32,522 bases of DNA from a bacterium (GTDB lineage Bacteria > SZUA-182 > DTGQ01): assembly GCA_040752695.1 (NCBI GenBank), contig JBFMGO010000069.1, positions 1 to 32,522 of the forward strand. The letters are read 5' to 3'. The notes under the pieces were generated by a model that made no database searches, was not told the origin of the DNA, and was given only the letters and a program-made list of their open reading frames with translations. This document shows, piece by piece, positions 8,776-32,522 of this stretch. The first letter of the stretch is position 1; every line of letters begins with the position of its first letter. The position numbers were made by a program, and so were the translations under genes.

Positions 8776-9188
8776 AGGGGGCTGCTCCAATTAAGGTTTA
8801 TTAATCTGCTGTTTACACCTTAATTCGGAGCAGTCCTACCCAAAAATCATCCAAAAGAACATCCCCATTATTTTTCAGACAGGCTCTTAGGTGTTAGGAA
8901 TAAGTTATGCATAATAAAAAGACTGTTGAAACATGAATGCAATGCAAGGAATTTTATCATTTGAAGATAAAAAAGGGTTCGGTTGGTATCTTCCAAAGAT
9001 TCGATTGATATCTCACATCTAAATTATTATATTTTTTAAGATAAAAAATAAATTTAGCCGAATATTTTATTTCTCCAGCTAATTCAATAACCTTTTTTAC
9101 CTTAAGTATTGAAGAGCATGTATAGGATAATCAGGATTAAGCCTAATTTTAGATACCGGGGACAGGACATCGAACTTAAGCACAGAAA

Positions 9189-10010
9189 ATGATCGGGGAG
9201 GAAAGAATAATGGTTCAATTACATCAAGAATTATCAAACCCGCTGGAAATTAATTACTATGGATACAAATTTCTAAGAGCTTGCTCAAATCAGCCTCAAG
9301 ATGCAGATTCATCTGAGCCGGACCATGAGAAAAGCATAACTGTTCGCAAGGCAGTAACCCTGGACGATATGGTGAAAGTTTTTCAAATCAGGTATGAAGG
9401 GTACAAAAAATATTATAAGAGCGAGGATGAAAACATGGATCAAAATGATTTTTCATCTCATGCATGTTTGCTCCTGGCTGAAGATAAACATCATAACCCG
9501 GTAGGTACCATAAGAATTCTCGATCGAAGATATGGGAAAATAGAGCTCGATAATTTCGTTAACCTTGATTCTTTTCTCCCGGAAGGCAAGAGCCTGAATG
9601 TTATTGAAGCGACTCGCTTCTCCATTCCAAATCATCTAGATTCCAAATTAATCAAGATGTTACTCTGGAAAGCACTTTTTCTTTATTGCCAGGTAAATCA
9701 CATAGATACTATAATCATGTCAGCACGTCCTGCTGCCGCCCGTTCTTATCGATGTTTACTTTTTGAAAATGTTGGCTCTTTAGGAGTGTACAAACACCCA
9801 TTGCTGGGAAATTTGGAGCATCAGACCTACAAGTGCATTATTTCAGAAAAGAAACATCAAGCAAAGGAGAAGAACTGGCCACTTTATCAGTTTTTTTTCG
9901 TTAAAGATCATCCAAATATCAAATTGGATTGTTTTAAATTATATAATCATGATAATAATGCTTCCGAATTATCTATTCAAGAAAAAACAACGGGAGTATG
10001 CATAAACTGA
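9189..10010 (+). CDS. FeeM-like N-acyl amino acid synthase / GNAT-fold acyltransferase
   Basis: Pattern VFQIRYEGY ... PVGTIRI ... VIEATRF ... AARSYRCLLF, matching the FeeM/LuxI-like acyl-ACP-using fold; alternative start ATG 9210 after GGAGG. Confidence 0.7.
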   Translation: MIGEERIMVQLHQELSNPLEINYYGYKFLRACSNQPQDADSSEPDHEKSITVRKAVTLDDMVKVFQIRYEGYKKYYKSEDENMDQNDFSSHACLLLAEDKHHNPVGTIRILDRRYGKIELDNFVNLDSFLPEGKSLNVIEATRFSIPNHLDSKLIKMLLWKALFLYCQVNHIDTIIMSARPAAARSYRCLLFENVGSLGVYKHPLLGNLEHQTYKCIISEKKHQAKEKNWPLYQFFFVKDHPNIKLDCFKLYNHDNNASELSIQEKTTGVCIN

Positions 10011-10200
10011 TTGTATGAACTTACGGCATAAACTGATCGAATGAACTGCTGAACTGATCGAGTGAACTCATGCAAGTGAATGAGCTCATAGAATCATCTG
10101 CCTGAATCAACTAACCGGATTAGTTGATCCAACCAATAGCGTGAGCCAACAGAATGAGCCAAATAGGGGGGAGCCAACAGAATGAGTCAACAGATGAGGA
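10000..10200. repeat. Intergenic short degenerate direct repeats
   Basis: Repeated (G/A)AACTGAT-like units at about 10000-10070, then GAGCCAACAGAATGAG twice (about 10143 and 10171). Confidence 0.55.
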
Positions 10201-10230
10201 TATAAAAGTCCAGGATAAGAGGTAGTTAAC

Positions 10231-11127
10231 ATGAAAAAGATTTCCGCAATTATCATCTGTATGCGAGAGGAAGGAAATATCCAACAATGTCTTAAGAGTA
10301 TCAATTTTGTCGATGAAATCATTATCATAGATTCCGGAGCCACAGAAAGAACTCTGGAAATCTGTAAGAAGTTTACTGATCGAATCGTTCGTCATCCATG
10401 GCCGAGTTACAGGCAACAAATGGAATATGCCAGGGATATAGCCAAAAACGAATGGGTGCTCAGCCTGGATGTAAACGAGGCGGTTTCGGAGAAATTAAAG
10501 GAAAATATCATCTTCGCTCTTGAAAAGGATCATGGCAGGTATGCCGGTTACCGGATGAAACGGCAGTATTTTTATTCGAACCAACAGGTAAACCATTGCT
10601 GGCATCCGGAACTGCAAATCCGGCTCTATAGGAAATCCAAAGCGCAGTGGGTCAGGAGAAATCAGCACTATTCGGTAGAATTGGATGGCAGATGCCGGGA
10701 TTTGAAAGGAGACCTGAAGTATTCTCCCTATCAGGACTTGTCACAGTACCTTCATGCCGTTGATTCCCGCTCCTCCATGAGAGCCAGGGAAGAATTTGAA
10801 AAAGGAAAGCCGGAGTACCCCTCTGGCCTTGTTTTCAGTCCGTTGTTTTACTTCGTTAAAGCCTATGGATTGAAGCGAGGGTTTTTGGATGGAATGCCAG
10901 GATTGGTAATTTCCGTACTTGAATCATATGGTCGCTTTTTGGAATCGGCGAAATTATGGGAAATGAGGAATGCCGTGTCAGCCGATTTCCTGCACTCGGT
11001 TCCCCTGAATCGTTTTCAGTATTATCTTGAGAAGATCAAAGGGATCATGTTCCCGGAAAAGCGCCAGCGCCATGAATCCCTTTGGAAAACAGCAAGGCTC
11101 CAATCAGCACAGGAGGATCATACTTGA
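10231..11127 (+). CDS. Family 2 glycosyltransferase (WaaE/KdtX-like) with a non-canonical DxD motif
   Basis: ISAIII...EEGNIQQCLKS...DEIIIIDSG, EWVLSLDVNE, C-terminal YGLKRGFLDGMPGL; GAGG RBS. Confidence 0.85.
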   Translation: MKKISAIIICMREEGNIQQCLKSINFVDEIIIIDSGATERTLEICKKFTDRIVRHPWPSYRQQMEYARDIAKNEWVLSLDVNEAVSEKLKENIIFALEKDHGRYAGYRMKRQYFYSNQQVNHCWHPELQIRLYRKSKAQWVRRNQHYSVELDGRCRDLKGDLKYSPYQDLSQYLHAVDSRSSMRAREEFEKGKPEYPSGLVFSPLFYFVKAYGLKRGFLDGMPGLVISVLESYGRFLESAKLWEMRNAVSADFLHSVPLNRFQYYLEKIKGIMFPEKRQRHESLWKTARLQSAQEDHT

Positions 11128-11154
11128 TAGGGTAGGAATTTCTTTCAGCAATGA

Positions 11155-11235
11155 AACAACAGGCAAAAAATAACGGCAGGGAAACAGCAGGCAGGGAAAC
11201 AGCAGGTAAAAAAAACAACAGGCAGGGAAACAATA
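11155..11235. repeat. Degenerate tandem repeat in the GT2-PKS1 gap
   Basis: GGCAGGGAAACA three times plus CA(A/G)CAGG units. Confidence 0.6.
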
Positions 11236-11236
11236 A

Positions 11237-14200
11237 ATGAAGCTCGTTACCGGAAGTGGACGTAAGATGGATAAGCAAGAGCCGGCATTGCAAAAGAGAG
11301 TTACTGGTAAGGGAACGGACATAGCCATTATTGGAATAGCTTGCCGTTTTCCGGACGCTCAAAATTACCAGGAGTTTGCTCACAACTTGCTGAAAGGGGT
11401 CAATTCGATCCGGGAGATCCCCCCCTCCCGATGGGATATCGAGAAATATTATTCTCCCGACTTCGATGAGCCCAATAAAAGTATCAGCAAGTGGTGCGGC
11501 CTCATAGATGGCATCGATCAATTCGATAATCAATTTTTTGCCATTTCTCCACGGGAAGCCAATAATATGGACCCGCAGCAGCGCCTGTTACTGGAAGAAA
11601 CATGGCATTGCATTGAAAATTCTGGGGTTCCCTTACGTCAACTTCAGCAAAAAATTACCTCGGTGTACATCGGTGTAATGGCTACCGATTATCATCAGGA
11701 AGCCTCGAATCCGAACATAATCACCGATAGCTATGCCTGCCTTGGGAATTACGAGTGTATTCTGGCCAACAGGCTCTCGTATACTTTCGGGCTTCAGGGA
11801 ACCAGCATATCGATCGATGCAGCCTGTGCATCTTCGCTGGTCGCTCTGCACCAGGCCAAAAGCTCTCTCATCGTGGGAGAAAGCGAATACGCCCTGGCCG
11901 GCGGCGTTTCCCTGGATTTTCATCCCTGGAAGTATATTTCCTTTTCCAAATCCCGGATGCTGAGCCCGGACGGGCAATGCAAGACCTTCGATATAGACGC
12001 CAATGGCTATGTTCCGGGAGAAGGGGTGGGAATTGTTCTCCTGCAGCGTCTTGAGGACGCTCTTGCGGATGGCAATCATATTTATGGGGTAATCAAAGGA
12101 TCAGCGGTAAACCATGGGGGGAAGACCCTCTCTATTACCGCTCCACGGGTGGAATCGCAAAAGAGCGTGATTGTACGCGCTTACCAGGATGCGGGGCTGA
12201 ATCCCGAAACGGTAACCTACGTTGAAGCCCATGGCACAGGAACCTCGCTGGGCGATCCCATCGAGATAGAATCCCTGACGCAGGCGTTCCGGGAGTATAC
12301 TCAGGATGTGCAATTTTGCACAATCGGTTCGGTCAAGACGAATATCGGCCACCTCGAGGCTGCGGCCGGAATTGCAGGCGTTATCAAGGTCGTGCTGATG
12401 ATGCAATACCGGAAGATACCGAAGAGCCTGAATATAAAAAAATTAAACCCGATTATCAATTTTAAGGCTTCCCCCTTTATGGTGGCTACCGATGTGGAGC
12501 GTACGCCTCATCCTGGGACCGAAGCAAGTGACTGGCATCCACGGAAACCGGAATTACCCCTGCGTGCCGGAGTAAGCTCCTTCGGGTTTGGCGGTGTAAA
12601 CTCCCACGTCATTCTGGAAGAATACAGGGAAGCAGTCAGTCAGGAAATTGATCGTGAGGAAAACCACCTCTTTCTTCTTTCCGCAAAATCTTCGAACAGT
12701 ATGCACAACCTTATCGAGGAGTGGAAGCAATTCGTTAACAGCGAAATATTCTCCCGCTACAGCTTGCGGGACGTTTGCATCACTCTGAAAGTCGGGCGGG
12801 AAAGCTTACCTTACCGTTACGGCGCTCATATCCGTAACAAAGAGGAACTGAAGGAATTATTAGGACAGGCTTCATCCTCTCTCCCCTCTATTCCCAGGCA
12901 AACGAAAAAGTATTGGTGCTTACGGATCGGCAATTTATCCTTCGAAAGCATGGAGCAGTTCCGGGGGTATTTAGAGAGATTCGAGCTGTTCAGGCAGAAC
13001 CTCGAAAAAGTCGTACACTGCTTCCTTTCGATATCGAAAGACTTCCTGGCCATCCCATCGAGGGAAGGGCAAACTTTAGAATCAGAAAGTACGACCCAGG
13101 GAGGAGCACTCCCCGCAGGGCAGGCAGAATTTCTCAAGAGCTTTTACCATGATGCATGGGCTGAACAGACCAGATCTCTTTATTCGTTTATGATCGCCTA
13201 TGCAGGTATCTGCACGTTAAGAGATCTCGGTTTTAACCCGGATGTCATCACTGGTGAAAAAGCCGGTGTAATGATGGGGCTGGTTTTGAGCGGCATCATG
13301 AAACTGGAGGATGCCCTGGCAGTCCTCAGTAAGCAAAAGGGATTGAAAGAGGTCGAGTTTACCCGGCCCGCTATTCCTTATTACGATTCCATATGCAAAA
13401 CAACGGTGATGCCCTTTCATTTCGATAGTAATTACCTTCTTCTTCTCGTTGATGAGCTTGGCAGGCAGAACAAACTCCTTGGGCAATTACTGGTAGACGG
13501 GATTTTCTATGCCCAGCAAAAGGATGCACAGCCTGTGCAGCCTGATAAAGATCAGCAGCAACAAACCCTTCTTGGCCAACTGCTTATACAGAACGGTGCT
13601 CTTAGTAAAGAGCAGTTGGAAAATGTTCTCGCTCTGCAAAAAAAGACGCATGATCTGCTTGGAGTTCTGGTTGTAAGAGAAAGGTATTGCACTCCGGATA
13701 AATTGACAGAGGCTTTATACCAGCAAGATGTACTGCGCTACTATGTACAGGAAGTATTTCATCACTACGTCGATCAAGCCAGATTACTGAACGGTGGCCA
13801 GTTTACCTTTAAAAAGTTTTTAGAAGAATGGAACGTCGTTCTCAAAAAGTCAGGGCATGATCTTCTGCAGTTGCTCTACGATGACCATCTCCTTTCCCAG
13901 CGAGGAGGCAGGCTCAGAAATGAAAAGTTACTGCTGATGATCATCATCATGAATTGCCTTCGCAAGCTCAACCAGAAATGGAATCTGACGGAGCCGCGTC
14001 TTGTCGAGGAGAAAAGGTTCTATGAGTTATTGGATTTAGTCACTGACGAAGTGATGACAAAAGAGGACCTGGTAGAGCTTTTCCTCAGTGATAACCCGGA
14101 TTACGCCGCTATAGCCCATAACCTGAACAAAAGGCAAATAAACAGGAACTTGAGCAATGAGTATAGATATATAAAAGGGTTAAACCCTAATGTCAGGGAA

Positions 14201-17200
14201 ATTGAAGATGTTTCGAGCTGGCTTATTCAGGCTATGGAAATAAAAAATGTCCTGCCTGAAGACACTATGGCCTATCTTCCTATCGCTCACATCGCCTTTT
14301 TCGAGACCGGATTATTCAACGAACCCGTACCTTTCGAAGGCGCGATACACCTTAAGGCAGTACGGAACATATGTGAGCTGTTTACCGACAGCCTGCTTCA
14401 ATTATGGCTGCATGGAGTCGATATCCAATGGGAAAAAATTTACCCTGAGGGATCATATAAAAAACCCGTTTTGCCTGTCTATCCATTTGACCGGAAATCT
14501 TTCTGGCTGCCCCGGCACGATCAGGATGGTCAAAGGGATCACAAAGATCAAAAAGGACAGAAAGGTCAGGGTTATCAGAAAGATCAGAGCTATCAGAAAG
14601 ACCAGATATGTCAGAAAGATCAGAAGGATCGGATACGCAGGGGGGATACGCAGGATGAAAGCCATGGCCGTGCTGAAAAAAAGCCCGTGCAGCAATTCCG
14701 GCACCTGGATCATGAGGTATTCAGCTACGAGCGCATTATTTCCCCCTGTGACCCTATCATTCAGGACCATGTGATAACGGGAAAATCTATCATCCCTGGA
14801 GCTTCGTTAATCGAGTTTGGGCTTGATGCCGTGCAAAAAACCTTACATCGGAAGATGCCGCAGAGCGCACCTGTTCACACCTTGCAGAATATTTTCATTC
14901 AAAATCCAGGCATTGTGGAAACAGAAATGGCTTTAGTGCTGGAAGTCACTCCCGATGAAAAGCGGTTTGCAGTGAAAAATGGCGCAGATATTTTATGCAG
15001 CGGCAAGTATGAGGCAGCCACAGGAAAAGAGGGGGCGGGGATGGCCTTCCCGCCCCTTGACTTTGCGTCTTTCACTCACAATTCACCCCTTGATATTGAA
15101 GATATTTATGGAGCATTGGCGGCAAAAGGCTATCACTATAGGGATGGATTGCGGGTAATGAAAAGCGTTTGGAAAACTGATCGCGGCTTTCTCATCGAGC
15201 TTAAAAGAATCCCTAAAGAGGCAGGACAGACAACATCCCTGAACCCGAGGATTCTGGACGGGATTTTTCAGGCAGCCTTGGCAGTCGAGTATCTGGAAGG
15301 ACGGATGCCTGAGGACAACGCGCTCTATGTTCCTTATTATATAAAATCCTTTCTCATTCCGGGTGAAATGAAAGATCGCTGCTTCATTTGCCTCGATCAC
15401 CAGGATAGCCAAAGAAAGGGTCAGGATATGAGTGTCCAGCTTCGGGCCTATGATGCTGCGGGTGAAGGCGTTTTTTGGATTCAGGACATGATTTTCAAAA
15501 GGGTATCGAACCAGTTTTTAATGCGGTCACCTCAAGATGTCGGCCTGGCTGAAACTGGTCTGGCTGCTACCGGTCTGGCCGACACAAGAGCATATCAACA
15601 CAGGCAAGAGGTAGATCCCGGCTCCCACCAGGCAGTATATTACTATACGCCTGTCTGGATCGGGAACCGGCTGAAAAGTACGGCTCCCTCTTTCGAGGGA
15701 GCGATGGATGGCGATCCTGTTTCCCGGCCAATCCGGCCCGTGGCCATGCTCCTTATGGGCGAAAGTGATTTGAGCGGATTATTGTCTCAGGCGATAGCTC
15801 AGAAATATCAGAAGGCTTTTTTCATCAGCCCGGGAGCCGCTTTTGCCAGAGAAGGCGACAGCCGTTTTTCCATCGACCCACTCTGTGAGCAAGACTATGT
15901 GAAGTTAATACAAGCTGTCGATGACCAAACCGATGGCAGTACGGGGCACTATGATATCTACGCTCTAGGGGCTTATGAGCCTCTCCTTTTTCCCGGCCTT
16001 TCTCTGCAAGATCTCAGGGAAAAACAGGAAAAGGGAGTAAACAACCTGTTTTTATTAACAAAAGCATTAACCAGGATTCATCCCCGATATACCGTTACCA
16101 TGGTGATAAGTACTGACCGTGTTCATGTAGTCGAACCTCAAGACAGGGGCGAGGGATACGTTTTCGGAGGACTCTTCGGCTTAGCCAAAACGATAACCCT
16201 GGAAAATCCCAGGATAAAAATAAAAATGGTTGATTTTGGCCGCGATAGTCTGCTCTTACCCGAAAAGGCACGTATCCTCCTTGACGAGGGATTTTCTCAG
16301 GAACGTTCAGAACCCGTAGAAATAATAGCCTATCGCGAAGGGGGACGATATGTCCGTACCCTTGAACCAGTATTTTTAGATTCCCGCTCTGGCGGGGCAC
16401 AAGCCTCATCCTGTAACCACGAGTCCCTTCTTAAAGATAGCGGCGTCTATCTTCTCATTGGCGGCGCCGGCGGATTAGGAATCAAAGTGGCTGAGATGAT
16501 CAGTAAACAGGTTAAGGCCAACCTCATTCTCCTTGGAAGATCGGCCTTACAGCCTGAAAAACGGCGCCGAATCGAACAACTTAAGACCTATGGCGGTGAA
16601 ATTCTCTACCTTCAGGGGGATGTAACCAGTCTGGAACAAATGATAAAACTTCTGGAAATAGTCAAATCCAGATATGGAGCTCTCCATGGTGTGATTCAGA
16701 CGGGGGGCGTCCTCGAGGATAAACTCCTGGTGAGTAAGGATTGGGAATCATTCCAGAGAGTGATGGCCCCGAAGGTACAGGGCACCATGATCATAAACGA
16801 GTTGACGCGGACGGAACCTTTAGATTTCTTCATGGTTTTTTCATCAATCGTTTCTCTTTTGGGTAATGTCGGCCAGGCCGATTATGCAGCAGCCAACAGT
16901 TTCCTGGATGCGTTCATTCATTACCGGGCCCGGAACGAGTATCCTGGTAAGAGCTTAAGCATTAACTGGACACTCTGGGCCGAGGGGGGAATGGGTATCA
17001 ATGAGTATGTAAGGAAAAGTTTCGAAGCCAGAGGATTACCGCCAATTTCTACTCATGATGGCCTGAAAGCTCTCGATCGGATTATCTGTCACGCTCATGG
17101 GGCACAAACAGTGCCAGGCGAATGCTCTTTTGAGGCTCATGCCACACCGTATGAACTGCCGTGCCAATTGGCCGTATTAGCTCAAAAATTCATGAAATTT

Positions 17201-17212: not shown

Positions 17213-17255
17213 GGATCGAAAGATCATTGCCTAAGAAGTCATAAAGAATATCTTA

Positions 17256-17271
17256 TGGCAAAAAATTTGCA
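17256..17271 (+). promoter_or_regulatory. Putative sigma54 -24/-12 promoter
   Basis: TGGCAAAAAATTTGCA with exact GG-N10-GC spacing, intergenic, about 50 bp upstream of the TTG at 17320 and its GAGGAG RBS. Confidence 0.55.
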
Positions 17272-17319
17272 TTAATCTTCATTATCTCCCCTATTCCAAA
17301 AGGTAAGAGGAGCTTTCGA

Positions 17320-23300: not shown

Positions 23301-26300
23301 AGCTTTCTGGAAGAATCTGGAAGAAGGGAAAGACCTGATAACGGAAATCCCCAGGGATCGGTGGGAGTGGGAAAAATATTATGGAGATCCAAACTCCGAA
23401 GTGAATAAAACCAGGGTCAAATGGGGCGGGTTCATGAAAGAGGTGGATAAATTCGATGCCCTTTTCTTTGGTATCTCGCCTCGAGAAGCGGAATTAATGG
23501 ATCCCCAGCAGCGAATCTTTTTGGAAACCGTATGGAAAACCATCGAGGATGCAGGCTATAAACCATCGGATTTTTCAGGAACCAAAACAGGGGTATTTGT
23601 CGGCGCTGCAACCACGGATTACCATGAGCTTCTTGCAGGGTCGCCCAATTCCGGCGGGGCGCAGGCATCGCCCTACAGCTATCGCATTGAAGCCCATACC
23701 TCGACAGGAAGGTTTCACTCGATCACGGCCAACCGGATATCGTATCTGTTGAACCTCCACGGTCCCAGTGAGCCGGTAGACACCGCCTGCTCGAGCTCAT
23801 TGGTCGCTCTTCATCGCGCAGTCCAATCTCTCAGGAGCAAAGATTGTGATGCAGCAATTGTTGGCGGCGTTAATGTAATACTGACCCCCACCTTGTATAT
23901 CTCTTTCAGCAAAGCAGGGATGCTGTCCGAGGATGGACGATGCAAGACCTTTGATAAAAAGGCCAATGGCTATGTGCGGGGAGAAGGCGCAGGCGCTCTT
24001 TTATTGAAGCCTTTGAGCAAAGCCGAGGCCGACGGGGACCATATTTATGCAGTGATCAGGGCGGTTTCCGAAAATCATGGAGGGCATGCCAATTCCCTCA
24101 CGGCTCCCAATCCGAATGCCCAGGCTGAGCTTATTTCCAGTGCCTATGAGGAAGCGAAAATCGACCCCTCTACCGTGAGTTATATCGAAGCGCACGGCAC
24201 CGGGACGACTCTCGGAGATCCCATCGAAATCAATGGATTAAAGAAAGCCTTCGGAGATCTTTACAAGAAATGGAATAAACCGACACCCAGGGTGCCGCAC
24301 TGCGCACTGGGGACCGTAAAAACCAATATCGGACACCTGGAGACTGCCGCCGGTATCGCCGGTGTCCTCAAAGTGCTTCTGGCCATGAAATATAAAAAAC
24401 TGCCAGCCACGGTGCACTTTCAGGAACTCAATCCCTATATCCAATTGCAGGGGAGCCCTTTTTCTATCGTGAAAGAAACCAGGCCATGGGATTGTCTGCG
24501 GGATGAGAATGGCCAGCCGGTCCCAAGGCGGGCAGGAGTGAGCTCCTTTGGCTTTGGCGGAGCCAATGCCCATGTTGTTCTCGAAGAGTACACAAAAGTG
24601 CTTCCCCGGGAAGACCGCATCGAGAGTCAAACACCTCACATTATCGTTCTTTCAGCCAAAGATAAAGAAAGACTGAAAGTCTATGCGGCAAAAATGGCAG
24701 AGTTCATAAGAAACGCCGTTGCCGGTGAGGCCGCTGCCGGTGCGCCAGGTGTCAATGATCCCGGTGCCGGTGTGCCCAATGATTCCGGCGCCGGCAACGC
24801 GGGTGGCAGCCCTGCCGCTATAGGCACTGCCGGTATCAGCCTTGCCGATGTCGCTTATACTTTGCAGACAGGCCGCGAGGAAATGGAAGAGCGGCTGGCG
24901 GTCGTGGCATCGGACATGGCTGAATTGGCTGATAAGTTAACCCGCTATTGCCGGGAGAGAACCGATCAGGAGGGGACTGATATTGAAAATCTCTTTGTGG
25001 GAAATGTACAACAGGGGAAGGCCAAAAGAGATCTTTTCATAGACGATGATGATCAGGAAGAATTGCTTCACATTCTCATCAAGAATAAAAGACTCGCCAA
25101 ACTCGCCCAACTCTGGGTATCGGGAGTGAAAATAGACTGGAAATCATTCTATCAAACCAGCACCCAGGAAGCACAGGCTCTGCCCTCTTGTCCGCGCCGC
25201 ATATCTCTTCCCACGTACCCCTTTGCCAGAGAGCGGTATTGGATACCGGAAGGTTTGAAAGGTCAGGTTCCTCAAGGTCACGGTCGTGGTGACAACGGGC
25301 ATGACCATGATGATGAAAGGCAAGGGTTACATCCCCTGATCGATAAAATAGTTCCCTCTTTAAGCCTGCACCAGGGGGTTGTCTTTCAGAAAACCCTGCT
25401 CGATACCGATGTGATTGTGCGGGACCATAACGTAAAGGGCCAGGCGGTATTACCCGGCGCAGGATATTTGGAAATGGCCCGTGCTGCTGTGTCTCAAGTT
25501 ATGGATAACCAGAAAATTCGTCCCGGCCTTTCGCAGATAGTATGGCTCAGGCCTCTGGCAGTGCAGGAAGGGAAAAAAGAAGTCCGGATCGTCGTTACCG
25601 GGCGCGATGGAAACGTGCAGTATGAATTTCAAAGCATTGACAATGGCGCTGTGATCGTTCACGCCAAGGGTATGGCATCCTTCGCGCTGCAGACCTCTTC
25701 CAGCAGGACAGAGGGAGACGGTGACCAATGGGTATCCATTGAAGAGATAAAGGCACGGTGTACGCGCCAGATTGCCAAGGAAGCCATTTATTCGCGGTTT
25801 CAACAGACTGGCATGAACTATGGCCCTTATTTCCAGGGTCTCAGCCGGATCTGGTTAAACGATGATGAAGCTCTGGGACATCTCATTATCCCCGGCGGGT
25901 ATGAGAATGAGCTTAAAAAGTATGCTCTTCATCCAGCTCTCATAGATGCGACTCTTCAGACGGTATCAGGATTTTACGAAAAAACACCGCTGACCCTTTT
26001 ACCTTTTGCCATAGATAAAGTAGAAATCCTGCATCCACTTAAAACACAAGGATATGCCTATGTCAAGGCATTCGGTAATCACCGCTTTTCTATGGCTATT
26101 CTGAATGAAACAGGTCTTGTGTGCGTCAAGCTCCACGATGTGGTCATGAGAGAGCTCAAGACGGTTCCGGGTTCGAAAACGGTTCAAGAGCCCGAAACGG
26201 TTCAAGTGCCTGAAGCAGTTCAGGGTCTGAAAGAAGTTCGGGGTCAGGATGACGATGCCAGGGGCCAAAGACCGGAGACCGGCTCCCATCGCCCGGAGCC

Positions 26301-29300
26301 TGAAGACCGGAAAGGTGGTCTTCGGGTCGGCGGCGGCGAGGGAAGTGATTTCTTCTATTGTCCACGATGGGTGGAAAGCCCCTTACCTTCCGCTCAGAAA
26401 GGCGAAGGCATAAAGAACGGCAAGAGCGGTAATAATAATGGCAAAGGCGGCAGGGAAGTAATACTCATCGTGCATCCGCCACAGAGCTTCGGGCTTGGAA
26501 AAGCGCTTTCGGAAGCACATCGCTACGATGAAGTCATCGAAATCGAACTGGGAACCGAAACGGGGCAGCGCAGTGGTAATCAGTGGCAGATCGATGCAAA
26601 AGATCCTTTCGCTTTGGATAGATGCATCGCCCAACTGGCGGACCTCCATTTGACGGATCTTCACTGCATTTACTTTCTTGGTGGCATCCAGGGGCCAAAA
26701 ACGGATGATGATAAGGGTGACGATCTGGATGCCCTGGAACGTGCTCAGGAGCGAGGGGTGATTTCGCTGTTCAGGCTGATCAAGGCTCTTGGCGGGCATA
26801 ACCTTATCCAACCCATTTTGCAATTGAAAGTTATCACCAACGATGTACATCAGATTTCCTCCGAGCAGGTTGTCAATCCTTATGCAGCGAGCTTGTTCGG
26901 TTTTACCAGGGTCATGGTCAGAGAGTATCTGGCGATGGAAGCCAGTTGCATCGATATCAGCCTCCGGGGTATCGGGGATGTCCCCGGAAAAGGGGATGTT
27001 GAGGGCATAAAACCCCTGGTAAAAGCCATTCTTACGGAACCCGGCAGCAGGAAAGGCGAAGAGGTAGCCATCCGGGAAGGAAAACGATATGTACGTACTC
27101 TCGTGCCGATTACTCTTCCTGCCGTTATCGATGCAGGCAAGGCAGCGTTTCGGCATCAGGGAGTTTATGTCATCTTAGGTGGGGCTGGCGGAATAGGGCT
27201 TGAATTATGCCGCTACCTTGCTGAAAACTACCAGGCACATCTGGTGCTGTTAGGGCGGGGTGATCTTGACGACAAACGGAAAGAGAAGATTTCCCGGATC
27301 GAATCGAAAGGGGGAAGGGTACTGTATGTAAGAGCTGACGCCTCAGATTATTCGAGCATGACTGCTGCCATCGAGAAAGCCAGGTCTCGATTCGGAAAAA
27401 TCAATGGAGTAATACATTCTGCGATTGTCCTCAAGGATATGATTCTGGAAAACATGGACGAGGCAAGTTTTCGCATGGCTTTAACTCCCAAGGTGAGAGG
27501 CAGTATGACCCTTTATAAGGCAGTGCAGGGAGAAGCGCTCGATTTCATGATGTTCTTCTCCTCCGCCGTATCCTTTTTCGGAAATATGGGGCAGAGTAAC
27601 TACACCGCGGGATGTACTTTTAAAGATGCCTTTGCACGGTATCTTAACCAAAGGGAAGGTTATCCGGTAAAAACGATCAACTGGGGATTCTGGGGAAGTG
27701 TGGGTGTCGCTGCGGCTTCAGAGGAGTACAAGAGGCGATTGACTGCACTGGGAGCCCAATCCATCGAGCCCGATGAAGGGATGGAAGCTGTACGGCAAGT
27801 CCTTGGCAATCCTGTGGAACAGATTGTGGCTATCAAAGCGCAAGACTTCCTGTTGGAGCGGATAGGAGTTGACCTGCACCACCACATGGTGATTGACGGC
27901 AGCAGCGGAGAAATCACGCTGGAAGAGCGAAAGCAGGGAAAACAGGTCCAGGCCCCCCTCACCCCGGCCACCTTCCCGTCCGAGAGCGGGAGACCCCGGG
28001 GGGGAAGAGGAGCGGAGCCTTCGCAGGCACCGCAAGACACAGCCGGCGGGCAGAAGGATGCGAAAAGGCGGTATATCGAAGAAAAGATCGTGGAGAATAT
28101 CCGTACTTGCCTGGGCATGAGCGCTCAGAAGATAGATTTCGCCAAACCCTTCGCCGAGTACGGCGTAGATTCCATCCTGGGGCTGGAACTGATTGGTAAG
28201 CTCAATATGGTGTTTGGCATAGCACTCAAGACGGCAGTCATTTTCAACCATGCCAACGTGAATGATTTGTCCCGCTATATCTATGATAAATACGGTGAAA
28301 AAATTACCGATGACACACTGCCAAAAGCCAATGCAGGCGAAGAGCCAGCAGCCAATGTAGGCGAAGAGAGGGTAATCAGGACGCCGGAGCAGGCACCTGT
28401 GTCCAAGCCGCCTGCAATGACGACTGCAAACAGCATATTTCAGCCTGCCGCAGAGGCAAAGGATATCAGGCAGGCTGGCGGGGACCGGCAGACCTGCAGG
28501 GACCAGCAGGCTATACAGACCGGCGGGGATCGGCAGGCTACACAGGCAGGCGGGGGTAAGCAGGTCAGAGATGACAGGCAGGCTGGCGGGGACCGGCAGC
28601 AATTCAAAGGTGGTAAACAGGCCGGAGAGGACGGGTATGAGAAGCAGGACAAACAGGGAGAAGAAACAGATATTGGTTTGGGAAGACTGAAATATCAAAC
28701 AAAACCTGTTGTCTGTAAGAATAACCCTTTTACCTTTCATAATATTTTCCTTACCGGGCCTACGGGGATATTAGGCGGTTACCTCATCAAAGAATTGCTG
28801 GAAACAACCACAGCACAGATATATTGCCTGATCCGGGCTCAGGGTATTACTCATGGGCTGGAAAGACTCAGGAAAATATTAATCAGCTATGGCGCACAAG
28901 ACAGGGTACTCGACGCCTTGAATCACAGGGTCGTGCCAATCATCGGTGATGTTTCCAAAGCCAATTTCGGCCTCCTGGAAATGGAATACCTCCATTTGGC
29001 AAATGCAATCGATTGTACGATTCACATAGCTGCATCAACCAATCTTATTATGCCGTATGATTATCTTGCTCCGATCAATGTCCAGGGAGTGAAAAATATT
29101 ATCAATTTTGCTTTGAAAACAAAGCAAAAATATCTGATTCACGTCTCAAGTTACCATGTGATGGCTGATGTGATTTATAGAAGTAATTTTGCCTTTACGG
29201 AGCAACATTTCGATGTGGGACAAAAGTTTGCCAAGATGGGGTATCAGGAAACAAAATTTGAAGGAGAAAGACTGGTACGGGAAGCCTCCCAGAAAGGCTT

Positions 29301-31389
29301 GCTCTGGAACATTGTCCGTCCGGGCAATATATTCGGCGAGGCGAAAAGCGGACTCTATCCCCTGGAGATGAGCGGCTCCGCCAGTATCTTCCATAGATTA
29401 TTCGAATTGATTATTAAATCCGGCATCGCTGCATTCGGCAATAATTATTTTGACATCACTCCCGTTGACTATATTGCCAAAGCCATACTCTTTCTGGGAT
29501 TAAAGAGAAATTCCTTCCGCGAAACATATCATCTGCTTAATACTGACAAAAAGCATTGGTATGAAATTATCAATCTGCTCAATGCCTATGGATATAAAAT
29601 AAACCTGGTTCTGGTTGATGATTATTTGAGGATGGTGCATCAGGACAGTTTGCCATTGGATGAGGAAGTCGCGCCCGAGTGGCTGAATCTGATGAAGTAC
29701 GGTTTTGCAAACAAGGAATTTTTTATCAACGATGGGTATGCCGATGCCACGTATACCCAATCTCTCTTAAAAGAGGAAGGCATCATATGCCCGAAGATTG
29801 ATGTAAAACTACTCGGCACCTACCTTGAGTATTACGCTTCAAAGGGTATCATTCCACTGCCGCCCAGGCCGGATGGCCAGGAAGAATCATCCCTGACGGC
29901 ATCATCCAGGCCAGATGGACAAAAGGAGGAGCCATCCGGGCAGCAGCTTCGATCAGCACCCGGGAAAGCTCATGGAAATGACCGTGAGGAGGGGAATGGG
30001 CTGCGCGGAAAATCGGCTGCTAATAATACGCCTCCTGATAGAGGTCCAGAATTAAAGGAGAAGACCATGAAAAGCAATGCGTATGAATTTATTATCGTTG
30101 GTTCAGGAGCGGGTGGAGCCACCATGGCCAGGGAATTGGTTAAAAAAGGGAAGAGAGTCCTCGTCGTAGAGCAAGGCAGGCGTGAGAAGAATATCGGGGG
30201 ACTCATGAATAGTTTAAGGCACTTTGACCACCATAAAATAACGCTATGGCCCAAGGCATCGAAAGAAGGGGTATTCCTCTACAGGGCGGTCATGGCTGGA
30301 GGCTCCACCGTGGTTTCGTGCGGTAACGGCACCCGGTGTTCGGAGGAACAATTTGCAGCTTTCGGCATCAATCTCGATGCGGAATTCACTGAAGCGGAGA
30401 AAGAGATGAACATCGCTCCCTTCAATATGAAATGGCTGTCCAAAGGTTCCAGAAAGATCCTCGAAGCATCCATCTCGCTGGGCTATAAGATGGAGCCGAT
30501 GCCCAAGTTTATGCGGTACAATAATTGCCGCAGGTGTGGTACGTGTTATATGGGGTGCCAATACAATGCGAAATGGACGGCGTTGGATTACCTGGATGAA
30601 GCTATAAAGGGTGGAGCCGACGTCATGTATGAAACCGCTGTCGAGCGGGTTCTGCATAAGAACGGCAAGGCCATAGGAATATGCGCCAAAGGGCCAAAGG
30701 GGCAGATCGTAATCCCCGCGGACGCGGTTGTCCTGTGCGCAGGGGGGCTGGCGACCCCTGTAATCCTCCAAAAATCAGGCATTGAAGAGGCTGGGTCAAA
30801 CCTTTTTGGAGATTTGCTGGTGAATACCTATGGGGTTGCAAAAAATCTCAGCCAGACAGGGGAACCTTCCATGGCACTTCTGGATAATGAATTTCATGCA
30901 AGCAAAGGGTTTATCCTCTCGACCTGGCCTCAGCCGTCAAGAGTTTACCGGTTTGCAGAGGCGGGGATACCAGGCATGCTCCTTCCCCCGGACCGGACCC
31001 TGGGAATCATGACCAAAAGCGCGGATGATCCGACCGGCCAGGTATTCCCCGATGGAACTTTTTCCAAAGCAGTGACTGAAAAGGACCGGGCACGGTTGCA
31101 AGAGGGCATAGAAATCTCCAAAGAGATACTTATAAGGGCAGGAGTGGACAGTAAGTCCATTGTGGTCGGTAATCCTGCGGGAGCCCACCCCGGCGGAACC
31201 GCCGCTATCGGCAAGATTGTGAACCGTGACCTGCAAACGGAAATCACTGACCTTTATGTCTGTGATGCCAGTGTCTTCCCGGCATCGCTTGGTGCGCCTC
31301 CTATCCTGGCCATCGCGGCTCTGGCCAAACGATTGGCGAAAGCTCTGGCATCGAAGCAGAGCGCAGCCGCGTACCAGAGTGCAGCCTAG
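17320..31389 (+). CDS. PKS2 (trans-AT type): ACP-KS-DH-KR-ACP-KS-DH-KR-ACP-thioester reductase-GMC oxidoreductase
   Basis: ACPs GIDS (17512), GFDS (22810), GVDS (28162); both KS have DTACSSS/HGTGT/GHLE; DHs HVVNNQKMLP and HNVKGQAVLP; KRs GGAGGLG/YAYGN and GGAGGIG/YTAGC; R domain TGPTGILG...YQETK (about 28740-29860); GMC IIVGSGAGG, CRRCGTCYMGC, AHPGGT, VCDASVFP (30067-end). No AT domain. Start could also be ATG 17395. Confidence 0.93.
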   Translation: MEIHFLEIHSYESHKEKHEYQGTGKMVNEKMRIIQVENYLAAIIASKTGSTPEGISREESFFSLGIDSIILQEIMGELGKKYDHLPPTLLFEYPNIQELAEHLAGQSVEDASEFNEDEPLFQDSQRGVSMQPKEPSQSQPLRPGAPLQAQETLQAEKNNVLQNSQEGVPVEKEPPLVPPPDSLKKGESVTPVSQVEEISLFPSDTFSPGDSNTFSPGDSRDASSFPQGDLKNTVSPVSARGNQTKEPLSSSHQPSIQMGGVTRQQGYEIAVIGMSGRFPKSPTIDAFWQNLIEGRDCIEEIPKSRWEHDRYFDPDPAKPNRSYGKWGGFIEDIDKFDPLFFAISPQEAEQMDPQQRLLLECVWETMEHAGYGNRSQYKDKVVGLFAGAMWNEYSLIANQGGFLKDLYCGPGSLYWAIANRISYIMDFKGPSILLDTACSSSLTAVHLACQSILSGDCDMAIAGGVNLSFHPSKYVYLSQAGFLSKDGRCRSFGINGTGYVPGEGVGAVLLKPLDKALKDKDHIYGIVRGSSMNHGGKAAGFTVPNPEAQARLIIKAFERANISPEQIGYIECHGTGTSLGDPIEIKGLTRAFKKYTNKRQFCAIGSVKSNVGHLEAAAGVAALIKVLLSMEYNKIPKSIHSEIKNPNINFEETPFYVVNEQKKWISTPSRPRLAGISSFGAGGSNTHLIVESFEGKKAGTSRSTYSVYAGPQRQDPQIIVLSARKEDRLKAYAAKLVEFLEKGDPALYASGQAGSWQSPTLSEIAYTLQVGREAKEERIALVVSSMEELREKLTHYGQGAKDIKGFYKGNIRANKQGVESLVDGEEGREFLKVIVKNKKLDKLAQLWVSGVFIDWSLLYSDQIPCRTALPTYPFARDRYWIPDSDPITITATTITPPPSSITPAGNGIGSKQCLAAKLHPLIGQNISTLKEQKFSTLLTGDEFFLEDHVVNNQKMLPGVAVLEMARAAAEIAGERKVQKLKDIVWTRPVTVGKTPQLVYACLHTQGHTGSHGGMVAYEVITDEEDNQRISHAQGKIIYESQENTRESQGNTHQDVVNIEEVKKRCTDIKDSTACYRLFRTKGFAYGPRFQAIQKLWSTGTEALSFLVLPLDSSHGADGFHDFELHPSLMDGALQTVIGLLGANDADSIYLPFALGEVELIRPLVSPCYAYGAMIGDRNAVNTASSRVKSFNILIVDEAGHVLVRIKDFSLRALSMHLKEGVPFTGQETSGHRNTQILSYRPVWEKLESGIRSLDREQSGHILIFDTNEEVYDAFRNKLAVREDGRVQVTLVKPGAGFKDLGNDALGDHVYKINPGQKGDYVQLLEVLKGKNLMPGSIIYLWSQENFSSNAEILSFLLERGIYSLFFLTQALMEQKSKGKIRILCAYTASSDQPQPQYAAFSGFARTVCRENPRFSYKIIEIQTLSLAQSAPFSPRSASRPEAAFTTALTVSRKVDLLLREVQAGVEDEGTLEIRYDESGQRWVKVLREFDLEEESAAGKMTYTFGGLEAGSTITLKNRGVYVITGGAGGLGFIFAEYLARAVKARLLLSGRSDLTFKKEAKIKELKASGSEVVYIKADIARLEDARMLIAEAKARFGKINGIIHCAGVVRDSLLVRKTKEEMDAVLAPKVFGTVYLDEASGSENLDFFVLFSSITAVMGNQGQCDYAYGNSFMDAFAAMREGLRNKGIRSGKALSINWPLWKEGGMRVDEQTEEFLAKTTGMRALSTKAGLSAFVKGLTLSDSQFVVTEGDRQKLARTLGVAESPALHASMVREVSTIQSPGGISGEPAQERKKEAGLLPGIQKDVIQIVSDILRVDRDEVHLDEDMSDYGFDSISYTVFANRINEKFNLEITPAIFFEHPTIGSFTAYLCHEYQDSFLRHHHLDGAAHDSTAGIVESDLRDTAESSLKDTAQEWSADERFFEEASIEESSFGQAPYEEWRFGKDPERGEGVRQFLSSQEKAGQVENGQAKATEPEAIAIIGMSGVMPQSEDLEAFWKNLEEGKDLITEIPRDRWEWEKYYGDPNSEVNKTRVKWGGFMKEVDKFDALFFGISPREAELMDPQQRIFLETVWKTIEDAGYKPSDFSGTKTGVFVGAATTDYHELLAGSPNSGGAQASPYSYRIEAHTSTGRFHSITANRISYLLNLHGPSEPVDTACSSSLVALHRAVQSLRSKDCDAAIVGGVNVILTPTLYISFSKAGMLSEDGRCKTFDKKANGYVRGEGAGALLLKPLSKAEADGDHIYAVIRAVSENHGGHANSLTAPNPNAQAELISSAYEEAKIDPSTVSYIEAHGTGTTLGDPIEINGLKKAFGDLYKKWNKPTPRVPHCALGTVKTNIGHLETAAGIAGVLKVLLAMKYKKLPATVHFQELNPYIQLQGSPFSIVKETRPWDCLRDENGQPVPRRAGVSSFGFGGANAHVVLEEYTKVLPREDRIESQTPHIIVLSAKDKERLKVYAAKMAEFIRNAVAGEAAAGAPGVNDPGAGVPNDSGAGNAGGSPAAIGTAGISLADVAYTLQTGREEMEERLAVVASDMAELADKLTRYCRERTDQEGTDIENLFVGNVQQGKAKRDLFIDDDDQEELLHILIKNKRLAKLAQLWVSGVKIDWKSFYQTSTQEAQALPSCPRRISLPTYPFARERYWIPEGLKGQVPQGHGRGDNGHDHDDERQGLHPLIDKIVPSLSLHQGVVFQKTLLDTDVIVRDHNVKGQAVLPGAGYLEMARAAVSQVMDNQKIRPGLSQIVWLRPLAVQEGKKEVRIVVTGRDGNVQYEFQSIDNGAVIVHAKGMASFALQTSSSRTEGDGDQWVSIEEIKARCTRQIAKEAIYSRFQQTGMNYGPYFQGLSRIWLNDDEALGHLIIPGGYENELKKYALHPALIDATLQTVSGFYEKTPLTLLPFAIDKVEILHPLKTQGYAYVKAFGNHRFSMAILNETGLVCVKLHDVVMRELKTVPGSKTVQEPETVQVPEAVQGLKEVRGQDDDARGQRPETGSHRPEPEDRKGGLRVGGGEGSDFFYCPRWVESPLPSAQKGEGIKNGKSGNNNGKGGREVILIVHPPQSFGLGKALSEAHRYDEVIEIELGTETGQRSGNQWQIDAKDPFALDRCIAQLADLHLTDLHCIYFLGGIQGPKTDDDKGDDLDALERAQERGVISLFRLIKALGGHNLIQPILQLKVITNDVHQISSEQVVNPYAASLFGFTRVMVREYLAMEASCIDISLRGIGDVPGKGDVEGIKPLVKAILTEPGSRKGEEVAIREGKRYVRTLVPITLPAVIDAGKAAFRHQGVYVILGGAGGIGLELCRYLAENYQAHLVLLGRGDLDDKRKEKISRIESKGGRVLYVRADASDYSSMTAAIEKARSRFGKINGVIHSAIVLKDMILENMDEASFRMALTPKVRGSMTLYKAVQGEALDFMMFFSSAVSFFGNMGQSNYTAGCTFKDAFARYLNQREGYPVKTINWGFWGSVGVAAASEEYKRRLTALGAQSIEPDEGMEAVRQVLGNPVEQIVAIKAQDFLLERIGVDLHHHMVIDGSSGEITLEERKQGKQVQAPLTPATFPSESGRPRGGRGAEPSQAPQDTAGGQKDAKRRYIEEKIVENIRTCLGMSAQKIDFAKPFAEYGVDSILGLELIGKLNMVFGIALKTAVIFNHANVNDLSRYIYDKYGEKITDDTLPKANAGEEPAANVGEERVIRTPEQAPVSKPPAMTTANSIFQPAAEAKDIRQAGGDRQTCRDQQAIQTGGDRQATQAGGGKQVRDDRQAGGDRQQFKGGKQAGEDGYEKQDKQGEETDIGLGRLKYQTKPVVCKNNPFTFHNIFLTGPTGILGGYLIKELLETTTAQIYCLIRAQGITHGLERLRKILISYGAQDRVLDALNHRVVPIIGDVSKANFGLLEMEYLHLANAIDCTIHIAASTNLIMPYDYLAPINVQGVKNIINFALKTKQKYLIHVSSYHVMADVIYRSNFAFTEQHFDVGQKFAKMGYQETKFEGERLVREASQKGLLWNIVRPGNIFGEAKSGLYPLEMSGSASIFHRLFELIIKSGIAAFGNNYFDITPVDYIAKAILFLGLKRNSFRETYHLLNTDKKHWYEIINLLNAYGYKINLVLVDDYLRMVHQDSLPLDEEVAPEWLNLMKYGFANKEFFINDGYADATYTQSLLKEEGIICPKIDVKLLGTYLEYYASKGIIPLPPRPDGQEESSLTASSRPDGQKEEPSGQQLRSAPGKAHGNDREEGNGLRGKSAANNTPPDRGPELKEKTMKSNAYEFIIVGSGAGGATMARELVKKGKRVLVVEQGRREKNIGGLMNSLRHFDHHKITLWPKASKEGVFLYRAVMAGGSTVVSCGNGTRCSEEQFAAFGINLDAEFTEAEKEMNIAPFNMKWLSKGSRKILEASISLGYKMEPMPKFMRYNNCRRCGTCYMGCQYNAKWTALDYLDEAIKGGADVMYETAVERVLHKNGKAIGICAKGPKGQIVIPADAVVLCAGGLATPVILQKSGIEEAGSNLFGDLLVNTYGVAKNLSQTGEPSMALLDNEFHASKGFILSTWPQPSRVYRFAEAGIPGMLLPPDRTLGIMTKSADDPTGQVFPDGTFSKAVTEKDRARLQEGIEISKEILIRAGVDSKSIVVGNPAGAHPGGTAAIGKIVNRDLQTEITDLYVCDASVFPASLGAPPILAIAALAKRLAKALASKQSAAAYQSAA

Positions 31390-31603
31390 CCGAGTATGCA
31401 GGTTATGGCGGGCAGCCTTATGAACTTAAGGATAGCTGAAAGGTTTCGCAAGGTTTTTTCCCCGGCGGGGAGATCGATCGCATGGGCAGAGTGAGCTGAG
31501 TGTGCGCATGGGGGGATTGCGCTGATTAGGGGGCTTGGGGGGATTTTAAAGGGGAATCCCCGGTACTGTACTTGAAGCTGAGGATTGTAAAGAGGTTAGA
31601 GAA

Positions 31604-32522
31604 ATGAAAAGAATACTGTTTGCCACCTTGCTATTGAACTTCGTTATCGGTTTATCATTCAGCACACAGGTTTTAGCCAATGGGGTATTGCTGGAAAGTG
31701 TGGGGCCGGTTTCTACGGGAAGAGGAGCCACCAATATCGCCCATTCGGACACTGGCAGCATGGTTTATGATAATCCGGCAGGGCTGACTCGTCCTGCGAG
31801 CGACAGGATAGAATTCAACGCTGATTTTTTCTCCTTCTCCATGCATTATCAAGATGCGGATAATGACGAGGAGGGCAAAGAGCCTCTTTTCATTCTCCCT
31901 TCCCTTTTTTATACGAAGCATTTCGATGAGCTTCCCATCGGGTTAGGTGTGGGGATCTTCAATTCAGCCGGATATTCTACAAAATACGATCTGTATTATC
32001 ATGGTAAACAACAGGAATATTCTTCCTATAGCTCGCTGAGCAAGCTGTTGGTGGGGGCAGGATACAAGATCACGGATGGGGTGTCTTTCGGCATGGGGAT
32101 TGGAGCTTCCTACAGCAAAATAGAATTAAAGATGCCCTATACCTTCCAAAATCCAGACCTGGCAAGTAAAATCCCTGCTACTGCTTTTATCGACATGGAT
32201 GCGGATGCCTGGTCTTATACCTGGAACATGGGGATGCAATGGGACATGTCCTCGAAGACCACTGTGGGGCTCGCCTACAGGAGCCAGGATTCTTTTGATA
32301 TGCAGGGAAAATTCGATATGGATGTCCCTGCCCTTGGCAATCCACCATATAATGTGCCGAATACCTCGGCCCACTATGATCTTGACTTTGACTTTCGCTG
32401 GCCCCAGAGTGCGGGCCTGGGACTGCTCCATCGATTAACAGACAGACATATACTATCCTTTGATGTTATGTGGATCGACTGGTCTTCAGCTTTTGACGAA
32501 TTGACCCTGAAACTTTCAAATG
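31604..32522 (+). CDS. OmpP1/FadL-family outer-membrane transporter, truncated by the window edge (absent from the ORF track)
   Basis: My translation: MKRILFATLLLNFVIGLSFSTQVLA signal peptide, then NGV...STGRGATNIAHSD...YDNPAGL (NPA motif), GLAYRS, WPQSAGLG, WIDWSSAF; no stop seen in the parts I translated. Confidence 0.85.
   Translation, partial: MKRILFATLLLNFVIGLSFSTQVLANGVLLESVGPVSTGRGATNIAHSDTGSMVYDNPAGLTRPASDRIEFNADFFSFSMHYQDADNDEEGKEPLFILPSLFYTKHFDELPIGLGVGIFNSAGYSTKYDLYYHGKQQEYSSYSSLSKLLVGAGYKITDGVSFGMGIGASYSKIELKMPYTFQNPDLASKIPATAFIDMDADAWSYTWNMGMQWDMSSKTTVGLAYRSQDSFDMQGKFDMDVPALGNPPYNVPNTSAHYDLDFDFRWPQSAGLGLLHRLTDRHILSFDVMWIDWSSAFDELTLKLSN

Follow-up and report, generated by a model that had tools for sequence, protein, structure and literature searches.

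A candidate lineage-restricted trans-AT polyketide/lipid operon with a putative c-di-GMP-binding module inside an AT-fold pseudo-domain

Control over the output of polyketide synthases (PKSs) is usually placed at transcription. The closest described counterparts of the system presented here are the trans-acyltransferase (trans-AT) PKSs of the difficidin (DfnA), macrolactin (MlnA), and bacillaene (PksE) lines, in which a ketosynthase (KS) is followed by a linker domain (LD) with no working cis AT, and which are served by a discrete AT fused to an FMN-type enoyl reductase (ER). The operon considered here, carried by contig C69 of a bacterial genome of 6.05 Mb in 239 contigs (G000; the whole 32,522-bp contig is referred to as the window), shares these traits, with its AT-ER joined to it by synteny, however it departs from the DfnA, MlnA, and PksE lines in a pseudo-AT bearing an MshEN module, in a reductase-GMC (R-GMC) end, and in FeeM-like, FadL, E2-like, and fused-carboxylase partners. 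The cyclic di-GMP (c-di-GMP) receptors MshE, PilF GSPII-B, and NfrB have in common with this module two 24-residue motifs, a 5-residue spacer, and a fold superposing at 1.1–1.2 Å, but there the host is an ATPase or a glycosyltransferase rather than the pseudo-AT of a PKS. Similarly, the FeeM-type synthases Nas343 and Nas354, which are fusions of NAS (N-acyl amino acid synthase) to PilZ and come from a family repeatedly coupled to second-messenger sensors, belong to the same FeeM Pfam family as the FeeM-like protein of the window, whereas in our locus it is the PKS, rather than the NAS, that carries the presumed sensor. The sequences are also far apart, and an acyl carrier protein (ACP) of the PKS would have to serve as acyl donor.

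Our reading of the window, about as likely to be right as wrong, is that it forms the first part of a lineage-restricted trans-AT polyketide/lipid operon with a c-di-GMP-responsive dead AT, and that the family 2 glycosyltransferase (GT2) encoded within it stands outside the pathway. The system is predicted to operate in the manner of trans-AT PKSs that are served by an AT-ER of the DfnA type, and its most likely role, judged from sequence, would be that of a second-messenger-gated envelope or signalling lipid pathway. An earlier sequence-only reading of this DNA had described five co-oriented genes, encoding a FeeM-like protein, GT2, two PKS proteins, and FadL. This was borne out by scans of open reading frames (ORFs) and Pfam, with ORFs on the plus strand at 9189–10010, 10231–11127, 11237–17212, 17320–31389, and 31604–32521 (the last open at its 3′ end), and with the Pfam assignments of all five genes lying above curated cut-offs. 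The features of the window are:

7975–8706, minus strand: IS5-like transposase fragments, three short adjoining frames with transposase-like sequence, seemingly broken by frameshifts (the IS5 label is our own, with no family search made)
9189–10010, plus strand: FeeM-like N-acyl amino acid synthase with a GNAT/LuxI-like fold (PF21926)
10231–11127, plus strand: family 2 glycosyltransferase, GT2 (PF00535)
11237–17212, plus strand: PKS protein 1, with KS1, LD, pseudo-AT with MshEN, dehydratase (DH) 1, and ketoreductase (KR) 1, and no ACP (Pfam, motifs)
12881–14539, plus strand: AT-fold pseudo-domain, as modelled, in the cis-AT position of module 1, nucleophile Ser replaced (GEKAG; AF2 model and VIA)
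13571–13726, plus strand: MshEN-type tandem c-di-GMP-binding motif of 53 residues inside the pseudo-AT (NF053729, structure match)
17213–17394, no strand: AT-rich spacer splitting the PKS in the KR1-ACP1 linker (GC 0.363, stops in three frames)
17395–31389, plus strand: PKS protein 2, with ACP1, KS2-DH2-KR2-ACP2, KS3-DH3-KR3-ACP3, R, and GMC (Pfam, motifs)
28741–29850, plus strand: terminal thioester reductase (R) domain (TIGR01746)
30085–31326, plus strand: GMC-family FAD oxidoreductase domain fused after R (PF00732, PF05199)
31604–32521, plus strand: FadL/OMPP1-family outer-membrane channel, ended by the contig edge after residue 306 (PF03349)

The insert of ~550 residues that follows KS1-LD in module 1 matches no Pfam family, and PF00698 is not detected at E ≤ 1. 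An AlphaFold2 (AF2) model of PKS1 residues 549–1101 (pLDDT 83.0) was compared with 48,161 solved chains in a VIA structure search. Of the 39 top rows, 38 belong to AT, MAT, or SAT domains, with Z from 8.8 to 19.4, and rank 32 to a mitoribosome assembly chain; the best matches are the ATs of Pks13 (Z 19.4, 241 residues, root-mean-square deviation (rmsd) 3.8) and ZmaA (Z 18.6). All rows listed by Foldseek for this model are likewise AT domains, but the E-values, from 7e-4 to 8e-3 across ~150 columns, are marginal. A model of KS1 plus insert (pLDDT 81.4) best matches the CurL KS-AT didomain (E 3.1e-57, 1126 columns). KS1-LD-pseudo-AT overlays the KS-AT of the cis-AT didomains of CurL, DEBS, and Pks13, with the AT fold at Z 17–19, but unlike these the pseudo-AT has no nucleophile Ser, no PF00698 match, and an inserted MshEN. 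Alignment by hhalign to the genome's real AT sets GEKAG under GHSMG in the expected register, at a probability of only 5%, and the nucleophile column over 26 members of the pseudo-AT family holds Ser in 2, Gly in 10, and Lys in 9. The module 1 insert is, as modelled, an AT-fold pseudo-domain with its nucleophile Ser replaced by Lys, and catalytically dead. The modules had earlier been called AT-less; this holds in that no catalytic AT is found in the 6680 residues of PKS, and fails for module 1, with its AT-fold pseudo-domain.

A search of 1.84 billion representatives with the insert gave 2045 matches at E ≤ 1e-3, including 112 at E ≤ 1e-30, and among the best 150 of the 2045, 137 contain the N-terminal AT-like part, 146 the helical C part, and 14 the MshEN segment. 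Pfam scans of nine insert-bearing proteins located the pseudo-AT behind an N-terminal first KS in seven, with diverse downstream modules that include enoyl-CoA hydratase (ECH) and methyltransferase (MT) domains; among these seven, one opens with a partial AT ahead of the KS, and one has a KS broken by an insertion. By these sequence matches the pseudo-AT is a widespread first-module element of trans-AT PKSs, and the MshEN insertion a minority variant. No description of an AT-fold pseudo-domain after KS1 was returned by a literature search for pseudo, vestigial, or inactive ATs, and the occurrence of this domain after the first KS in >100 representative PKS clusters may define an unrecognised initiation module.

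The MshEN module is helical and sits in the middle of the pseudo-AT, between two AT-like parts. Against NF053729 (NCBIfam; cut-off 38) it reaches 48.4 bits when the protein is scanned and 54.2 bits when the genome is, and its segment matches the c-di-GMP domains of PilF at E 5.9e-9. Model residues 230–285 superpose on c-di-GMP-bound PilF (8pdk) with Z 9.2 and an rmsd of 1.1 Å over 55 residues (46% identity), and on MshE (5htl) with Z 9.1 and an rmsd of 1.2 Å, showing the four-helix MshEN_N fold. The spacing of the insert agrees with the published MshEN layout of 24+5+24 residues and the pattern RLGxxhhxxGhhxxxxLxxxLxxQ, as given in the consulted part of PMC5013675, with 20 of 24 pattern positions fitting by eye in motif 1 and 19 of 24 in motif 2. 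The earlier suggestion of an MshEN-like insert is a true match on the evidence of the NCBIfam cut-off, the PilF profile, and the fold superposition, and a link to c-di-GMP lifestyle signalling is therefore reasonable. The same genome holds 14 GGDEF matches and 16 MshEN-motif matches, 14 of the latter over the cut-off, which makes for a large set of MshEN-type receptors. On its contig C15, an ORF of 915 residues has two MshEN copies adjoining a weak GGDEF match. A literature search returned no description of an MshEN-PKS fusion, and the word “polyketide” is absent from the main text of PMC5013675.

Lifestyle regulation had also been argued from a sigma54 motif, however this part of the claim is at chance and only the c-di-GMP part is reasonable. 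The scan found no exact TGGCAC-N5-TTGC, and allowing ≤1 mismatch gave 3 sites against 1.86 expected, with 31 of 100 shuffles reaching 3. A sigma54-like site with one mismatch lies at 17256, inside the AT-rich spacer, and a reading of 8640–9240 found no clear −24/−12 element upstream of the FeeM-like gene. Scans for sigma70 promoters and terminators were at or below shuffle level.

Pfam and motif reading give the PKS layout as KS1-LD-pseudoAT(MshEN)-DH1-KR1 / ACP1-KS2-DH2-KR2-ACP2-KS3-DH3-KR3-ACP3-R-GMC. The KS Cys is present in all three KSs (DAACASS, and DTACSSS twice), with HGTGT and N[IV]GH likewise kept; the DH His boxes read HVITGKSIIP, HVVNNQKMLP (G to N), and HNVKGQAVLP, and the Asp boxes DGIFQ, DGALQ, and DATLQ. 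The ACP serine (DS[IL]) is retained in all three ACPs, and the Tyr in the KRs. Each KR has an Asp at the “LDD” position (LED, VRD, LKD), which under the Caffrey/Keatinge-Clay rule denotes B-type reduction and trans double bonds, and this is what the sequence predicts here. Neither of the two PKS proteins, nor the segments between their domains when scanned at E ≤ 1, yielded a Pfam family for an ER, an MT, or a catalytic AT. The three KS-DH-KR-ACP sets read earlier are thus upheld in their catalytic motifs and in the lack of a cis ER or MT, with the exceptions that ACP1 lies on protein 2 and that module 1 is not bare. The best solved matches of KS1, the only KS so compared, are trans-AT KSs, with 7zma (887 bits) followed by PksJ and PksL, and with CurL and DEBS behind.

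Protein 1 ends in the KR1-ACP1 linker and is followed by the 182-bp spacer, whose GC content is 36% and each of whose three frames is stopped. The PKS2 ORF opens at TTG 17320, and the ATG at 17395, just ahead of ACP1, is the likely start. The orthologue in genome G012 is uninterrupted across this split point, with the relatives having a single ORF of 5961–6078 residues; the PKS of the window is ~600 residues longer in total. Low-complexity repeats rich in Gln, Lys, Asp, and Gly (e.g. QKDQ, GGDRQ) occupy the linkers at 14549–14656, after the pseudo-AT, and at ~28400–28650, between ACP3 and R.

Reductive release of the chain, proposed earlier, is supported by the terminal R domain, which scores 229.7 bits against TIGR01746 (cut-off 213.35) and retains the Rossmann motif TGPTGILG and the YQETK motif. 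The R domain is fused to a GMC domain, detected by PF00732 (78.7 bits, E 7.4e-22, cut-off 23) and PF05199 (37.7 bits, E 3.6e-9, cut-off 24.6), whose nearest solved structures are remote (E ~1e-8). In a search for GMC domains in proteins of 2578–8206 residues among 5.8 billion clusters, 1378 word-sharing candidates were scored, four of which have the domain, namely the PKS of the window and three from its relatives. A literature search found no description of a PKS ending in R-GMC.

The collection examined holds 20 genomes of the host's candidate phylum, five of which, all of one order, have an insert-bearing PKS, and seven of which have FeeM-like genes. The cluster is so far known from a small number of related bacteria, none of them cultured, and a pattern scan over genome contigs yielded 3 loci only. 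Six loci with an R-GMC-type PKS or a remnant of one were compared:

G000:C69 (the window): FeeM upstream; FadL, cut by the contig end; E2-like, AT-ER, and carboxylase genes on contig C132 by synteny; GT2 present
G012:C101: two tandem FeeM genes upstream; FadL, then E2-like; AT-ER downstream, cut by the contig end
G007:C82: FeeM, FadL, and E2-like present; no AT, AT-ER, or carboxylase in the ~11 kb that follow; an IS21 transposase on the upstream side
G007:C49: no FeeM, FadL, or E2-like; AT inside a second PKS; HMG-CoA synthase/ECH cassette
G005 (C216 and C372): FeeM not in the 1.9 kb available; FadL and E2-like; AT downstream; a stop between R and GMC
G002:C50: FeeM upstream; no FadL or E2-like; split AT and ER, broken carboxylase; decayed

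FeeM orthologues (53–71% identity) stand directly upstream of the PKS in G012, G007:C82, and G002, and full-length FadL orthologues (420–448 residues, 63–67% identity) follow it in G012, G007:C82, and G005. The FadL gene of the window scores 109.7 bits against PF03349 (E 1.5e-31, cut-off 29.7). FeeM-like and FadL genes are therefore well placed as members of the cluster, as the sequence-only reading had them, since both recur beside orthologous PKSs. Gene order is conserved in part, with FeeM, FadL, and E2-like genes recurring at most related loci and GT2 at none of four. The E2-like gene, which follows FadL in G012, G007:C82, and G005, encodes a putative acyltransferase of 261–273 residues made up of a stand-alone PF00198 domain (E2/chloramphenicol acetyltransferase fold) with an invariant HxxxDG. 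Catalytic domains of the E2 family pass acyl groups from one thiol to another.

Contig C69 ends inside FadL, and contig C132 of the same genome opens with the E2-like gene, which in the relatives comes after FadL. C132 very likely continues the cluster across a gap of ~130 FadL codons. After the E2-like gene come a 792-residue AT-ER and a 1893-residue carboxylase (3759–9440) with biotin carboxylase, biotin carboxyl carrier protein, and carboxyltransferase in one chain, an arrangement unusual for a bacterium. Compared with DfnA, the trans-ER of difficidin, the ER part of the AT-ER reaches 619 bits, and with MlnA 482. AT-ER orthologues (62–83% identity) are present in 4/4 PKS-bearing relatives. 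An AT or AT-ER lies downstream of the matching loci in G012, G005, and G002, and a carboxylase in G002. As to the genes beyond the window, about which the earlier reading had asked, the contig itself stops in FadL, and E2-like, AT-ER, and carboxylase genes are supplied by synteny.

In genome G007, the region C49:125000–143000 has a paralogous R-GMC PKS and, after it, a second PKS. The latter combines a KS with parts of the pseudo-AT, a genuine AT, a pair of ACPs, and a hexapeptide-repeat transferase domain, and has a beta-branching cassette behind it of an ACP-hexapeptide protein, a KS, an HMG-CoA synthase, and two ECH genes. In G002, which is of the same genus as the host, C50 encodes a 451-residue KS, a 937-residue fusion of KR-ACP with a GMC tail, and a fragmented carboxylase.

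In the pathway we propose, KS1 has no loading ACP and would therefore take its acyl thioester primer out of primary metabolism (a fatty acyl chain, probably), with the discrete AT supplying malonyl units from the dedicated carboxylase. Three extensions would follow, each reduced and dehydrated to a trans-enoyl, which the trans ER may, in some cases or in all, saturate. The R domain would release the chain as an aldehyde or alcohol, which the fused GMC flavoprotein may oxidise or adjust further, and the FeeM-like and E2-like enzymes may couple the chain to an amino acid or another acyl group, or add one of these as a decoration. The hydrophobic product or a precursor would cross the outer membrane through FadL. 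The dead AT of module 1 would act as a regulatory platform, in which MshEN is probably a binding site for c-di-GMP and would make the start of the chain depend on the cell's level of this messenger. In what form it would do so is more tentative: c-di-GMP on MshEN may gate priming or access of the trans-AT, so that lipid synthesis would track the sessile/motile state post-translationally, a proposal we consider possible but short of an even chance. If true, a nucleotide-sensor module in a megasynthase would bring in a novel layer of control, as well as a switch that could be transplanted in engineering. The R-GMC end, the stand-alone E2-like protein, and the dedicated fused carboxylase point to lipid chemistry without a characterised precedent.

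A number of observations weigh against this reading. The first-position Arg/Lys is replaced by Leu in both MshEN motifs, and motif 2 has an Arg at the conserved Gly (VVRERYC), which close relatives keep (EKGYC), so that affinity for c-di-GMP may be low or lost owing to these deviations. The second motif of the c-di-GMP-bound PilF domain likewise reads LLG. In the consulted part of PMC5013675, mutation of hydrophobic MshEN positions brings a >10-fold loss and that of Arg9 at most a ~5-fold loss, and binding of c-di-GMP by the module is therefore plausible. The assignment to FeeM is also weak, with a profile of the orthologues searched against the Protein Data Bank recovering no FeeM structure at E ≤ 1, and five loci with FeeM-like paralogues (G000:C127, G001, G003, and two in G007) have no PKS neighbour. 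Furthermore, the orthologous PKS of G007:C49 is found without FeeM, FadL, or E2-like genes and is accompanied by the extra PKS and the beta-branching cassette instead. Additionally, the join of C69 to C132 is drawn from synteny, the chemical sense of placing a GMC oxidase behind a reductase is not evident, and loss of function in G000 is possible, given a PKS split by an AT-rich spacer and a decayed copy in the same-genus relative.

Among the alternatives, the one that survives best, although unlikely, is that the product is an N-acyl amino acid surfactant or signal, with the FeeM-like enzyme taking the chain from an ACP of the PKS and amidating an amino acid, and with R-GMC and the E2-like protein tailoring it or making side products. 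The FeeM-like protein scores 38.1 bits against PF21926 (E 1.7e-9, cut-off 27) and has an Atlas feature score of 0.97 to FeeM clusters (TM 0.71); a Glu (E140, in IEATRF) is invariant in 5 of 5 orthologues, and an alignment to FeeM itself (2G0B) was not obtained. According to the consulted part of PMC4897644, acyl-ACPs serve as donors to FeeM-family enzymes, whose products are N-acyl amino acids, NAS-PilZ fusions making N-acyltyrosine and another FeeM-type enzyme being activated by cAMP. This second-messenger link of FeeM-type enzymes speaks for the main reading, and Atlas clusters in which FeeM is joined to PilZ or cyclic nucleotide-binding domains agree with it, as a lead only. This alternative gains from the FeeM orthologue being the gene most tightly placed at the start of the PKS (4 of 6 loci, with a tandem pair in G012) and from no separate ACP gene being seen in the window or on C132, but the intact R domain argues for reductive over amide release, and FeeM paralogues without a PKS, together with the FeeM-free PKS of G007:C49, count against it as well. 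The FeeM-like family is not tied to PKSs of the window type. Its paralogues, including G000:C127:15750–16346, share 41–53% identity and occupy unrelated contexts without PKS, FadL, or E2-like neighbours. A literature search for trans-AT PKSs with N-acyl amino acid synthases found general papers only, and none on such a system.

Heterocyst glycolipid synthesis employs a PKS, a thioester reductase, and a glycosyltransferase. The sequence-only reading had drawn on this as an analogy, with three non-reduced extensions giving a conjugated triene, followed by reductive release and possible glycosylation by GT2. The three KS-DH-KR-ACP sets without a cis ER or MT, the R domain, and the GT2 within the operon agree with such a scheme, which nevertheless appears still less probable than an N-acyl amino acid. 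A triene is unsafe to predict with a DfnA-type trans ER fused to the trans-AT on the probable continuation contig and linked to the PKS in the relatives, and the scheme gives no account of the GMC domain or of the E2-like gene. The GT2 gene, located between the FeeM-like gene and PKS1, is well recognised (PF00535, 42.3 bits, cut-off 23.3), however no homologue occurs in the PKS flanks of the four related loci, and the best homologues, in G002, G001, G012, G007, and G005, are on other contigs, with no insert-bearing PKS found in G001. From these comparisons GT2 appears to be a lineage-specific passenger, a local addition outside the conserved pathway. The likeness to heterocyst glycolipid synthesis lies in the general logic of a PKS that reduces its chain, release by reduction, and transfer of a sugar, and is based on general features of that pathway with no sequence comparison, whereas here the GT2 is not conserved with the PKS, the PKS is of the modular trans-AT type with a trans ER, and FeeM, GMC, and E2-like components are added. 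The system is not of the heterocyst glycolipid type, because its glycosyltransferase is not conserved with the PKS.

It is improbable that the cluster is a decaying remnant in G000 from which no product is made. The insertion sequence (IS) fragments upstream, the split of a PKS that is continuous in the relatives, and the inserted GT2 would fit with decay, as would the heavily deleted copy in G002 and the stop between R and GMC in G005, but ~20 kb of open frame with every checked catalytic motif, and a PKS2 with its own ATG just before ACP1, argue otherwise. Split modules are also common in trans-AT PKSs.

That FadL imports an exogenous hydrophobic starter for the PKS, loaded by the E2-like protein as a thiol acyltransferase, in place of exporting the product, is the least credible alternative, with the family description of FadL proteins as uptake channels, a KS1 without a loading module, and the general ability of E2 catalytic domains to shift acyl groups between thiols set against the lack of any acyl-CoA or acyl-ACP ligase in C69 or C132 and a direction of transport that is not readable from sequence.

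Returning to the candidate trans-AT operon as a whole, no characterised match to the cluster was found in the searches made, among which MIBiG and antiSMASH were not included. Its left boundary is probably formed by the IS fragments at 7975–8706, and the minus-strand genes upstream of the FeeM-like gene have no counterparts beside the PKSs of the relatives. In G007:C82, the equivalent place upstream of FeeM is taken by an IS21 transposase (NF033546). At C17:58000–71445, the genome that contains the window encodes a second, paralogous AT-ER (74% identity), adjoining an Sfp-type phosphopantetheinyl transferase and a MacB-like permease. Nearby on C17 lies a gene for a 1077-residue protein combining a right-handed beta-helix (NosD-like) region with a FadL-like C-terminal barrel.

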